DNA of 64,000 bases from a virus (lineage: Duplodnaviria; Caudoviricetes). Positions 26,160 through 48,600 of the stretch are shown here, piece after piece (the first letter of the stretch is position 1; every line of letters starts with the position of its first letter). The stretch lies in the IMG/VR virus record IMGVR_UViG_3300025732_000016; one strand, 5' to 3'. Under the pieces are notes generated by a model, which was given only the letters and a program-made list of their open reading frames with translations, was not told the DNA's origin and did not search any database. The position numbers and the translations under genes were made by a program.

Positions 26160-27254
26160 TCAAGCCAACCTCACAAGTCTGACCCAGTTTGCGTTGATCG
26201 CACCGAGTCCGATGACTTCCTTCTCCTGTGCGAAGAAGTTAACCTCTTCCATCTCAACGTCGTACAGGCCCTCGGCATCGAGAAACTTCCCAGAGTTCTC
26301 TCCTGAGCTCGCTGCAAAGATGACCGAGTATGTGTTGCTTTCCCACTGGCTACGACGACCCAATGAGAAACCGTCAGCGACCTCAATGTCAGATGACCAA
26401 GAGGAAGAGAACCTGTCACCCGTGGGTGTGATCTCGAAATTGCCCCGCAGCTCCTGCTTCCCGCCGTCTGGGTCCAGCTCAGTGATGTCCACTCCCATCC
26501 TCTCGAGCTCATCTAGCGTGAGGGACATCCCGCGGAAGTATGTTCCGGGCGGAGCTTCCCTGAAGACGTCCGTGTAGAGTCCATCCCTGATGAATCCCAT
26601 GATAAGGTTGGCCTGCTGCCTTGTGAGCGGCCTGTTCCCCTCAAAGTGGTTGATGATGGACCGGAGGAGGGCAGACTCAACAGGCGTGTTCCTCTCCATC
26701 GGAGGACGCTTCTTGGCAGCCTGGCGCTGGGGTGAGAATGCGTACTTCCCAAGGGGCGAGCCAATGGGAGCCGTGGGCTCATAGGAGGCGGCATACTCAG
26801 CCTCCTCTCGCTCTGCCCCATCCAGCTCGGCAATCCGGCTCATCCTGAGAATCTCCTTCGACTGGCGCCTCATCTCCTTTCCGATTCTCTCGATGGCTCG
26901 TGAGACCCTGAGGTCCCTCCTGTCATCGTTATCCACGAACTTGACGAGCTGCCTGTAGACACCATCGAGGAACTTTCCACCAGGGTCGAATCCCATGACG
27001 CTCTCGAAGGGGATGTCGGGAGACTCTTCCCTGCCGTACTCATACGTGAACCCGGGAATTGCCTTCTGGAAGATCTCGACGTACTCTCCGTATGTCGGCC
27101 ACCTCCCACTGATGTCCTTGAAGTCGCTTCGCAAGAAGTATCGCCAGAATTCGAAGACACCGTGGATGGAGTCTCCACCTGGGTGCTGGGACTTCGCTTC
27201 GGCGAGGAGGGTCTCGCGGATGAGATGTCGAAGCGTAGACTCAGTGATTCGCAT
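26160..27254 (-). CDS. Putative ADP-ribosyltransferase (R-S-E type) with N-terminal tag
   Basis: YFRGM, SSSWS and QEKEV in the C-terminal domain; N-terminus MRITESTLRHLIRETLLAE. Confidence 0.65.
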   Translation of the reverse strand: MRITESTLRHLIRETLLAEAKSQHPGGDSIHGVFEFWRYFLRSDFKDISGRWPTYGEYVEIFQKAIPGFTYEYGREESPDIPFESVMGFDPGGKFLDGVYRQLVKFVDNDDRRDLRVSRAIERIGKEMRRQSKEILRMSRIAELDGAEREEAEYAASYEPTAPIGSPLGKYAFSPQRQAAKKRPPMERNTPVESALLRSIINHFEGNRPLTRQQANLIMGFIRDGLYTDVFREAPPGTYFRGMSLTLDELERMGVDITELDPDGGKQELRGNFEITPTGDRFSSSWSSDIEVADGFSLGRRSQWESNTYSVIFAASSGENSGKFLDAEGLYDVEMEEVNFFAQEKEVIGLGAINANWVRLVRLA

Positions 27255-27258
27255 GATA

Positions 27259-27858
27259 CTAACTATTCGGCCTCACGCCACTTCGCAGGACAATCTCGCA
27301 GATGTGGTCGAGCCTCTCGATGTGCTCGTACGCCGACCATGGGTCACCCGCCACCGAGCACACCCCGTGGTTCGCCTGACCCACGACATCGAAGGCGAGC
27401 TTCCCGTTCCCGTCCAACATCGCGGAGGCAGTCGCACGTGCCAACTCAGGTGATGTGGCAGGCAGGACCGGGACTGTCGGGCCCACCCTCGTGTACCGGC
27501 TCACCTCAGGGAACTCACTTGCGATCCTCTGCAGGTCCCAGCCTGCGTAGACAGCAGCGACAATGTGGGTCGGATGGACATGGACGACTGCACGGGTGGA
27601 GCTGTTACCCAGCTGGAGGAGACGGTGCATCTCCAGTTCACCGGATGGGCTTGAGTCCTTCGGCACGTCAAGCGTCCCGTCGAAGCCGAACCTCACCTTG
27701 ACGACGTGTTCAGGATGGATGATGGTCTTACGCCAGCCGGAGGGTGTGATGTAGAGTGTCTGAGAACCTCTCTTTCGCAGCGAGATGTTACCGTCCCTCG
27801 TAGTTATCCATCCCTTGTCGTAGCATCTCCTCATCACATCACCGATAGCAGTGAGCAT
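27259..27858 (-). CDS. Class II aldolase/adducin-family protein
   Basis: RDGNIS, ITPSG, PSGELEMH, VVHVHP and NHG motifs. Confidence 0.85.
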   Translation of the reverse strand: MLTAIGDVMRRCYDKGWITTRDGNISLRKRGSQTLYITPSGWRKTIIHPEHVVKVRFGFDGTLDVPKDSSPSGELEMHRLLQLGNSSTRAVVHVHPTHIVAAVYAGWDLQRIASEFPEVSRYTRVGPTVPVLPATSPELARATASAMLDGNGKLAFDVVGQANHGVCSVAGDPWSAYEHIERLDHICEIVLRSGVRPNS

Positions 27859-27887: not shown

Positions 27888-27915
27888 ATATGGCCCGGTA
27901 GAAACCGGGCCATAT
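27888..27915 (-). terminator. Intrinsic terminator after tRNA-Glu
   Basis: 11-bp inverted repeat ATATGGCCCGG/CCGGGCCATAT followed by TCTTTT. Confidence 0.7.
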
Positions 27916-48000: not shown

Positions 48001-48554
48001 TTGTCAGGATCGACGTTCCTGAACCAGTAGACGTCCGACAGGGTCGATGAGCCGTTGTTGGTGAGGGTGACAGTCATCACGACGTAGACCTCGTCATTGA
48101 CGACACCGTACTGGGTCTCTACCCCGAGGTCTCCCACCGCGCCGGTCCATGTCACCGCACCGCCGAGGTTTCCGCAGATATCGACCTCACATGCGGGGTC
48201 TCCGAGGGAGCCTGCGATGCCATTCGTCCAGCCGTTTGTGTTGTCGTATGCGACCCCGTTGAACTCAACGCCCCAGCCCTCGAGAGGAGAGCCGGGTGAG
48301 AAGAAGTCACCGTAGTAGCTCGACCAGCCGTTCCGCTGCGGGTTCGCCACGAAACCGAGTTGGCCTGTGTTCGACCGGTAGTGCCATCCAGAAGGGTAAC
48401 CGCCCTCTCCGAAAGCGCCCTCGGAGCCGATGCCGAACTCAACGTATTCGTTACGAATAAAAGCTGATGAACCAGGATCATTGACTTCACAAAAACCTGA
48501 TGCCTGGGCCAGCGTTGGCGTGAGGAACAAAAGTGATAGAAGTATTTTACGCAT
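44973..48554 (-). CDS. Large surface protein: signal peptide + globular domain + TSP3-like Cys/Asp repeats + internal MYXO-CTERM-like motif + beta-barrel-like region + OmpA C-terminal domain
   Basis: Many DxDxDGxxDxxDxCP repeats; GGGCSTTGGGGSGSLILMTLGAVLASRRR; OmpA motifs VVGYADS, LSRERAKVA and NRRVEF. Confidence 0.8.
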   Translation of the reverse strand: MRKILLSLLFLTPTLAQASGFCEVNDPGSSAFIRNEYVEFGIGSEGAFGEGGYPSGWHYRSNTGQLGFVANPQRNGWSSYYGDFFSPGSPLEGWGVEFNGVAYDNTNGWTNGIAGSLGDPACEVDICGNLGGAVTWTGAVGDLGVETQYGVVNDEVYVVMTVTLTNNGSSTLSDVYWFRNVDPDNSVMTTYDYSTTNTIISQPDSSTDLASVRATGGDGADLYLIASDSRARVTHGGFFNTDASDIWNGSGFYSTVGSSVSDDAAISLAVSLGDMAPGQSETFRVIYTLDETAVSAATDCAEAPVEPDADGDGIPDSSDSCPSDPYDDADADGVCGDVDACEGYDDLADADADYTPDGCDSCPSDPYDDADGDGVCGDVDVCEGYSDLVDSDSDGIPNGCDACKYDADNDSDSDGVCAENDICPGSDDRIDTDGDYTPDGCDTCPFDALGDSDADGSCDSDDICPGADDTLDTDSDGIPNGCDACPADSADDSDGDGSCDSADICPGADDTVDSDEDGLSDDCDTCPLDELNDIDGDGTCGDEDICPNDSLDDRDGDGACESLDVCPLDPSDDVDGDGACADTDPCEFDADNDIDADGICGDVDACPDDATNDADEDGLCGLSDNCSDAFNSDQADIDGDGLGDICDPDADGDGADDVTDNCPGLSNDQSDVDGDGVGDACDPVDDRPIDTGDSGDSGVVIDTGDSGHDTSIDTGSDSAVDSADETGAPPVDDTDENPAPKGSYVPGGGCSTTGGGGSGSLILMTLGAVLASRRRGLFSFLLGFPLLMGASGGEVPEMSVVPLPPRGESRFLGDETAIVGGVVTDPLSYINPQGDEVVVIDDVYWGWTTNRYTFEHFSVDFGVPASIANDGVVRLGDVWGGLRVNSKAFSVDGLGAYGDVSLVAPTGVGLGVSHPGWATTLEAGAEAQFGNVGGLLGAGFMVYPKVDLEGYELGSGPYITAAGSYSVGDFTIGVDSQAFHNLGESPVSSLFIGSSLEWTVGNFSIGGALSKGVIRQPGDGDWQATMQITFGPSDEEEEDATPEVSPQTACECKVQEEPLQPIVIVVPAKPDVTLPPKQEVGIGFLPGDTKLNTKARATLDGVWTVLNLRPGYGVKVVGYADSSEMEFKHPEELSRERAKVAADYLIGKGVDAGRISIEGKGDTAPLDTSGTPEGQALNRRVEFVVVVAAKPAQ

Positions 48555-48600
48555 ACCTCTATCTATGTTATTCGCGCGTAGAGACTGACGAAAATTCAGA

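Follow-up and report, generated by a model that had tools for sequence, protein, structure and literature searches.

A predicted ADP-ribosyltransferase family and the short shared leader that may load it into the heads of uncultured T4-like phages

We analysed a 64,000-nucleotide stretch of IMG/VR virus record IMGVR_UViG_3300025732_000016 (Duplodnaviria; Caudoviricetes), called the window throughout, and in it a gene for a 364-residue protein that resembles an ADP-ribosyltransferase (ART). Computation gave an ART fold, a conserved set of Arg, Ser and Glu-x-Glu, a leader peptide that also heads unrelated proteins, and a protease of the T4 gp21 type in two of three related contigs. That the protein is an active mono-ART acting on protein seems somewhat the better supposition; that it is packaged into the head through its leader is a judgement we would make either way with equal ease. 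The reading as a whole, in which a leader-packaged, trimmed and injected mono-ART modifies arginine, stands about evenly poised.

The fold is the firmest part of this reading, and residues 150-364 are very probably an ART domain with an intact active site. The model of the full-length protein, with a predicted local distance difference test score (pLDDT) of 82, consists of a low-confidence short N-terminal helix (the leader), a helical domain (30-157), an extended segment and an alpha/beta domain. When residues 150-364 were modelled alone with a 44-sequence alignment, the pLDDT was 92.7 and the predicted template-modelling score (pTM) 0.87. Alignment to 48,161 representative solved chains, performed without Foldseek, gave 135 chains at Z≥2, and all 50 of the entries listed belong to the ART superfamily. 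KptA (Z 8.2) and TreX (Z 8.1, root-mean-square deviation 3.0 over 97 residues; the best structural match with an R-S-E triad) are followed by Vis toxin (Z 7.3, 137 residues aligned, helices before the core included), pertussis S1 (Z 7.2), EcPltA (Z 7.0), Scabin (Z 6.7) and LT (Z 6.6); a Z of 7-8 may occur by chance. Arr, Tpt1, C3, iota-like toxins, SpvB, Certhrax, DarT, ParT and PARPs come lower, and pierisin, a DNA ART, is likewise among the solved-structure matches. The top 35 rows of a Foldseek search are all from the ART superfamily, the best being cholera toxin A1 (E 1.7e-3, prob 1.00).

Predicted structures point the same way. BFVD, which holds predicted viral structures, returned eight matches at E≤1e-3 (best 1.4e-6), all uncharacterised proteins of Sinorhizobium phage phiN3, Bacillus phage SP-15, Ralstonia phage RP12 and a mimivirus; its weaker rows (E 1e-3 to 5e-2) comprise phage G proteins, ARTs fused to portal or minor capsid proteins, and T4-type ModA, ModB and Alt. 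In the ESM Atlas, the neighbours by language-model features and by structure are DRAT, Mod_ADP_RT, ADPrib_exo_Tox and NAD:arginine ART (PF01129). Judged from alignment ranges, not residue by residue, R241 lies opposite R7 of LT and R9 of pertussis S1. The case for the fold is made by the uniformity of these lists together with motif conservation, and not by single scores.

The motifs themselves, Y239-F-R241-G, S284-S285-W286-S and E344-K-E346, were verified codon by codon against the DNA. Arg, Ser-Ser-Trp and Glu lie on strands in the expected ART order, and E346, which opens its strand, is the predicted catalytic Glu. The preliminary description of this DNA, made from the sequence alone, had picked out these motifs in this order, proposed an ART fold and named structure prediction as one check; the motifs are there, and the prediction agrees. 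Conservation was counted over 171 family members aligned to the domain profile. R241, W286 and E346 are present in every one, G242 in 169, S285 in 166 and E344 in 162, with seven members carrying Q-x-E in place of E-x-E. Such conservation rules out chance as the source of the motifs. R-S-E ARTs are known to alternate between E and Q at the first residue of [EQ]-x-E, and Q-x-E for E-x-E accompanies a change of acceptor in other members of that group. The third position of the S-T-S-type motif is Trp instead of Ser or Thr. Among 23 close homologues R241, S284-S285-W286 and E344/E346 are invariant, and so is P-L-G-K-Y-A-F-S-P-Q-R-Q ... P-P-x-E-x-N.

This last stretch belongs to a conserved pre-core of about 75 residues that is the hallmark of the family, with F173, R177, E187, E193 and Y227 near-invariant and a family-specific segment at 167-193 (P-L-G-K-Y-A-F-x-x-x-R ... 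P-x-E-x-N-x-x-x-E). In the alignment of close homologues the ART domain varies most between the Arg strand and the S-S-W strand. The equivalent stretch of other ARTs, between the Arg strand and the S-T-S strand, often holds specificity elements. The ExE motif is typical of ARTs that modify arginine (PMC11606950).

The domain (residues ~155-360) is self-standing and defines a large family. An exhaustive HMMER search found it in at least 504 clusters at E≤1e-3 and in 253 at E≤1e-10 (clusters at 50% identity), in proteins of 160-760 residues with many differing N-terminal parts and an identity across the domain of ~30% overall. The recorded taxa are nearly all phages. The closest homologues, 25 metagenomic proteins, reach E values down to 1e-222, and some lie on contigs of 220-257 kb. 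No family domain was found among the proteins of more than 637 residues that were searched for it, and ten long family members contain no Pfam domain, hence no MuF or portal fusion at sequence level. The protein thus represents a new sequence family, an ART of the R-[ST]-E clade with an ExE motif.

Head-delivered phage ARTs are already a known kind, T4 Alt being the studied example. ARTs occur in more than 40% of jumbo phages and 30% of myoviruses according to Iyer et al. 2022 (PMC9503650), and the context of ~44% of phage ARTs points to packaging, typically through fusion to MuF, portal or polyvalent proteins (PMC9503650). What is new is a large family outside the profile libraries with its own conserved pre-core, tied to a short, widely shared and probably cleavable leader and not to a structural-protein fusion, with module swapping and polyprotein forms behind that leader. 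As a separate observation, a region of PDB 9k3a chain B from the cyanophage A4 pre-ejectosome (1420-1607 in the entry numbering) aligns to the ART model with Z 4.3; this ejection-protein region may be another virion-carried ART-like fold, in a podophage.

The first 14 residues of the leader read M-R-I-T-E-S-x-L-R-x-L-I-R-E. Residues 8-14 form its invariant core, L-R-x-[LIV]-[IV]-R-E, and the terminal [LIV]-[IV]-R-E, a hydrophobic-x-Glu ending, is found in 22 of 22 aligned leaders. The core is followed by L-L-A-E-A at 15-19 (L-L-x-E-A in this subfamily), and both I-R-E and L-A-E fit a hydrophobic-x-Glu protease site. Four other open reading frames (ORFs) of the window begin with the same leader (hidden Markov model E 1e-8 to 1e-10; next match E 0.012), which agrees with the recurrent tag of the preliminary description and brings the tagged ORFs of the window to five. 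Their bodies are unrelated: one is ligase-like, one is a hydrophobic protein of 318 residues and two are small proteins. Across the window and its relatives the leader heads ART, ligase-like, GNAT-like and unknown proteins. A profile of the 22 leaders matched 14, 5 and 18 ORFs in three related IMG/VR contigs of 257, 176 and 52 kb. In these relatives leader genes run consecutively around the ART gene, often beside a leader-bearing GNAT-like gene.

Within the ART family, 42 of the 171 members start with the leader, and many others start with similar amphipathic peptides ending in L-x-E. Synonymous codon differences separate the paralogous leaders; conservation therefore acts on the peptide, and a DNA-level repeat as its source is ruled out. 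A recognition tag for a radical-SAM enzyme was considered too and rejected, no such enzyme having been found in the three related contigs, which are fragments. Searching cultured phage records by tblastn with a 24-residue leader query, which is too short, gave no match.

Two natural fusions place the leader inside longer proteins. In one ORF of a relative (L004:9959-11614) a leader, a GNAT-like module, a degenerate leader, the helical N-domain and the ART domain follow one another, and the internal start codon is now GTT. A metagenomic protein of 342 residues (P0024) has a leader, ~100 residues, a second leader (residues 104-122) and then directly the ART domain. Leaders at the joints of modules are what would be expected of a polyprotein processed by a protease.

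Relatives of the phage have such a protease. Of the three related contigs, G001 and G002 carry genes for a Peptidase_S77 protein, the family of T4 gp21, and for a gp23-type capsid protein. The capsid propeptides carry Q-L-L-R-E or Q-I-L-K-E right before a Gly-rich stretch, within a few residues of the position at which T4 gp23 is cut. Directly upstream of the capsid gene of G002, an acidic and 5'-truncated ORF (L018:2-1237) contains six [LIV]-R-E and 20 [LIV]-x-E sites; position and composition suggest that it is probably the scaffold protein, and so many sites would suit breakdown by the prohead protease at the leader's terminal motif. T4 gp21 prefers L or I at P3. It cleaves after Glu, as do related giant-phage proteases (PMC5694885). 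T4 Alt is a core-packaged ART of ~40 copies that gp21 trims at its N-terminus, and the T4 capsid-targeting sequence (CTS), an N-terminal peptide of ~10 residues, loads IPII, IPIII and foreign proteins into the head (PMC9958956, PMC5694885). On this circumstantial evidence the leader would behave like a T4-type capsid-targeting propeptide that is cleaved by the protease.

The gp21-like protease of G001 (G001:C1:88475-89962; L014, L015) matches its Pfam family in two pieces ~1 kb apart within one stop-free frame of 573 codons, which may reflect an intein or another in-frame insertion.

The packaging, cleavage, injection, enzyme activity, arginine specificity and target that we infer would come together as follows. 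The leader, of 14-19 residues, would dock the protein onto the scaffolding core of the assembling prohead, and a gp21-type prohead protease would remove it after I-R-E (residue 14), after L-A-E (residue 19) or after both. After maturation the enzyme would remain among the packaged DNA, reach the host together with the genome, and draw on the host's nicotinamide adenine dinucleotide (NAD+) to attach single ADP-ribose groups to one or more host proteins. Since the motif is ExE, the acceptor would most likely be arginine.

Several results weigh against this proposal. The individual fold scores are middling (Z≤8.2, TM 0.3-0.5). Compared by hhalign with T4 ModA, ModB and Alt, the family profile gave probabilities of 0.6-7%, which are not significant; the alignments to ModA and ModB, equally non-significant, happened to pair the two Y/W-R-G arginines. 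A very distant kinship to Alt/VIP2 (PF03496) or Mod_ADP_RT (PF26816) within the clade is nevertheless likely. The protein had been called unannotated, and neither it nor a 44-member domain profile matches anything in Pfam, PHROGs, NCBIfam or the PDB sequences (phmmer and profile searches); a Pfam scan of the 44 members also gave no match, one member touching SidE_mART at E 0.1. A tblastn search of 50,697 cultured phage records with the protein and two distant members found no homologue. In the window the ART gene is surrounded by transfer RNA (tRNA) and metabolic genes and by no head genes. Compared by eye with the T4 CTS (M-K-T-Y-Q-E-F-I-A-E), the leader shares only the terminal I-x-E, and it is an analogue of the CTS, not a homologue. 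Among T4 proteins, IPII and IPIII alone conserve the CTS (PMC9958956), so Alt is not known to use a tag of this type. An R-[ST]-E toxin of the Rhs type ADP-ribosylates tRNA-Thr (PMC13617354); ARTs of this clade can therefore modify tRNA, and the triad alone leaves the kind of target unfixed.

Between leader and ART domain lies a helical domain that is an optional, exchangeable and lineage-specific accessory. A search of 5.8 billion proteins found it in ~13 orthologous ARTs only, and comparison with the ESM Atlas and with solved structures gave generic helical matches. It was not found in the 52-kb contig G003, which is 26% complete. Close relatives lack it: P0020, P0022 and P0023 consist of leader and ART domain alone. 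Identities also differ between modules, with P0003 sharing 90% of the N-domain and 71% of the ART domain with the window protein (P0001), and P0020, which has no N-domain, sharing 85% of the ART domain. This mosaicism implies recent exchange of modules. A role of the N-domain in target choice, regulation or packing is possible. The preliminary description had taken the first ~200 residues as one unit, which must be redrawn as a leader (1-19), the helical domain (22-157) and a stretch (~160-235) that falls within the ART-family domain.

From these parts a wider picture can be sketched, tentatively. The domain of ~205 residues would be a large unnamed phage ART family whose members become capsid cargo, in uncultured T4-like phages, via a 14-residue leader cut by a protease. 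Its modules would be swapped or strung together as plug-and-play injected effectors, and the fast-evolving loops between Arg and ExE would retarget the enzyme.

The gene start is preceded by an element of its own. The octamer AATAGTTA occurs twice in the window against 0.23 expected, in both cases 5 nucleotides (nt) before the ATG of a leader gene, and the looser WATAGWTA six times against 0.9 expected, four of them upstream of leader genes. Over the 45 nt that precede each of 84 predicted genes, no hexamer is more enriched than TAGTTA (six seen, 0.29 expected). The box had been claimed before, and these counts bear the claim out. In a relative (L008) AATAGTTA stands at the same spacing before the ART orthologue and before another leader gene, and in L010 AATAGATA precedes a short-form ART. 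The box is a real upstream element and most likely a promoter. It agrees at five of eight positions with the T4 late-promoter octamer TATAAATA. The spacing suggests that transcription would start at or next to the ATG and give a nearly leaderless mRNA. More widely, at least seven genes in this phage and related ones have [AC]ATAG[TA]TA exactly 5 nt upstream of their ATG (window:19255-19262, 27260-27267 and ~48559-48566; L008:5419 and 9989; L010:11820; L004:283).

The protein could be an active ART without being capsid cargo, working, like T4 ModA and ModB, within the infected cell once it has been made there. The leader would then be a signal for assembly, localisation or turnover, or a translation-initiation context behind the AATAGTTA box. 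We consider this unlikely, though worth serious thought. In its favour, the gene has a promoter-like box of its own, and its neighbours are tRNA and metabolic genes instead of head genes; genes without the leader peptide, for example 22028 and the adhesin start near 48554, have the box upstream as well; and a CTS proper is known in T4 from IPII and IPIII alone. Against it stand the gp21-type hydrophobic-x-Glu end of the leader and the protease in two of the three related contigs, the internal leaders at the joints of natural fusions, and the synonymous differences between paralogous leaders, which oppose an initiation element acting purely at the nucleotide level.

It is distinctly improbable that the fold acts on tRNA, other RNA or DNA, or that its main activity is that of an NADase which depletes or alters the NAD+ of the host and so, for example, blunts NAD-dependent defences. 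The highest structural Z belongs to KptA/Tpt1, an RNA 2'-phosphotransferase, and the DNA ARTs Scabin and pierisin are listed, as is DarT. An R-[ST]-E toxin that modifies tRNA-Thr exists, as said above (PMC13617354), 19 tRNA genes and a transfer-messenger RNA (tmRNA) gene are clustered around the ART gene, and the seven Q-x-E members suggest that the acceptor may vary within the family. The KptA-type triad, however, is H-H-h and not R-S-E (clades per PMC13617354), whereas R, S and ExE are kept almost without exception here. ExE is the hallmark of arginine specificity (PMC11606950), and the Atlas neighbours DRAT and PF01129 are arginine-specific. In relatives, moreover, the ART gene lies in a cassette of leader-bearing genes away from tRNAs, so the tRNA neighbourhood is not conserved. 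As for a catalytically dead fold serving as a purely structural or internal head protein, we find it barely credible. T4 IPI-III show that an internal head protein need not be an enzyme (PMC9958956), but near-perfect retention of Arg, Ser and both Glu over 171 members ~30% identical would be hard to explain without catalysis. An arginine-modifying mono-ART carried in the head stands as the likeliest of these readings.

The features are collected in Table 1. The ORF uses ATG 27254, the first start, six codons past an in-frame upstream stop; overlapping ORFs on both strands in the ORF listing of the window were dismissed as spurious. PhoH, a DNA helicase, an ATP-dependent ligase, virion and tail-fibre proteins and several phage-only PHROG families mark the window as phage DNA. 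Its PrkA-like kinase also occurs in Thermus phages and in uncultured phages of 630-640 kb.

Table 1 Features of the window that bear on the ART gene and its leader
Feature	Coordinates	Strand	Details
ART-candidate ORF	26160..27254	minus	single frame, 364 residues + stop; leader, helical N-domain, ART domain
N-terminal leader, residues 1-19	27198..27254	minus	profile matches and leader alignment
Helical N-domain, residues 22-157	26784..27191	minus	modelled helices 30-49, 55-65, 91-107, 111-157
ART-family domain, residues 160-364	26163..26777	minus	profile, model and conservation
R241, predicted NAD-binding Arg	26532..26534	minus	first core strand (Y-F-R-G-M), strand 238-246
S285 of S-S-W-[ST], S-T-S motif equivalent	26400..26402	minus	strand 283-287, then helix 290-299
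E344-K-E346, ExE motif	26217..26225	minus	start of penultimate strand, 346-350
E344 codon	26223-26225	minus	
E346 codon	26217-26219	minus	
AATAGTTA box	27260..27267	minus	5 nt before ATG; overlaps last codons and stop of upstream aldolase gene
Leader ORF, 109 residues	18920..19249	minus	AATAGTTA 5 nt before ATG
Leader ORF, 135 residues	30247..30654	minus	no family; AATAGATA 24 nt upstream
Leader ORF, 425 residues	36065..37342	plus	shortened leader; weak RNA-ligase match
Leader ORF, 318 residues	40162..41118	plus	leader a few residues in; hydrophobic; TATAGTTA upstream

The tRNA cluster that holds the ART gene spans 9 kb (window:24903-33841). It comprises the tmRNA gene (tag peptide ANNTDHFSEALAA) and the 19 tRNA genes, all of these on the minus strand, with the ART, an aldolase II, a secreted NS-type endonuclease, a DUF559 endonuclease and a small leader-bearing ORF interspersed. 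A strong terminator-like hairpin of 12 pairs followed by a T-run (27888-27915, minus strand) lies between tRNA-Glu and the aldolase gene, so aldolase and ART may form a separate unit of their own. The 257-kb relative and two further contigs that carry the same ART protein have, where the window has aldolase II, a leader-bearing gene for a GNAT-like acetyltransferase that overlaps the ART start by 4 nt (L001:9516-10004, L002:6926-7405 and L003:150-629).

Those phage ARTs that travel in with the DNA act on the host before any other enzyme. T4 Alt is the only one of them that is understood, though genomics predicts many more (PMC9503650). The present family gives hundreds of metagenomic protein clusters that the libraries leave unannotated a testable function and a defined active site (R241, S285, E344 and E346). 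Its link to a shared and probably cleavable leader yields a candidate set of injected proteins for a whole lineage of uncultured phages, and should the leader truly target proteins to the capsid, it could offer a handle for loading foreign proteins into such heads.

Comparison with T4 Alt shows how far the likeness goes. Both belong to a T4-like phage lineage, both place a C-terminal R-S-ExE ART domain behind a non-catalytic N-terminal part, and both begin with a peptide that ends in hydrophobic-x-Glu, Alt starting M-E-L-I-T-E-L-F-D-E. Alt goes from the scaffolding core, trimmed by gp21, into the host by injection (PMC9958956, PMC5694885). Alt has 682 residues, however, against 364 here, sequence similarity is not detectable, and the fold match to Alt-type proteins is weak (E 0.024). 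A leader common to many unrelated proteins of one phage has not been described for Alt. 'Alt-like', the term of the preliminary description, describes the logic and not membership of the family, hhalign having detected no sequence-level kinship to Alt, ModA or ModB.

The T4 CTS of IPII and IPIII is the closest counterpart of the leader; it too is a short peptide with which unrelated proteins begin, and it has I/L-x-Glu at its end. It suffices to load foreign proteins into the prohead core, after which gp21 removes it (PMC9958956). The leader differs in sequence, with its invariant L-R-x-[LIV]-[IV]-R-E, and is longer, with a core of 14 residues, or 19 with the second site. It is carried by enzymes (ART, ligase-like and GNAT-like) where the CTS is carried by small basic internal proteins, and it also occurs inside natural fusions.

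ModA and ModB (PF26816, Mod_ADP_RT) are small phage R-S-E ARTs and neighbours in fold (E 7e-3 to 5e-2; Atlas score 0.87). They are neither packaged nor leader-bearing, and the profile comparison with them was not significant. TreX and Tre1, Rhs and type VI secretion system toxins that act on FtsZ arginines, share the R-S-ExE site and are delivered pre-made into a bacterium (PMC11606950). TreX, however, is a minimal core of ~130 residues to which the present family adds its conserved pre-core; the delivery machine differs, and no immunity gene is evident beside the ART gene.

The ARTC prototypes, cholera toxin A1, LT A and pertussis S1, are the top Foldseek matches (prob 0.99-1.00). With 12-20% identity and a TM of ~0.35 the likeness is one of superfamily only, and neither an A2/B-subunit apparatus nor a eukaryotic target context is seen here. 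The phage ARTs fused to MuF, portal or polyvalent proteins (PMC9503650) share the predicted strategy of an ART held in the myovirus head and delivered with the DNA. Packaging of the present enzyme would depend on a short cleavable leader in place of fusion to a structural head protein.

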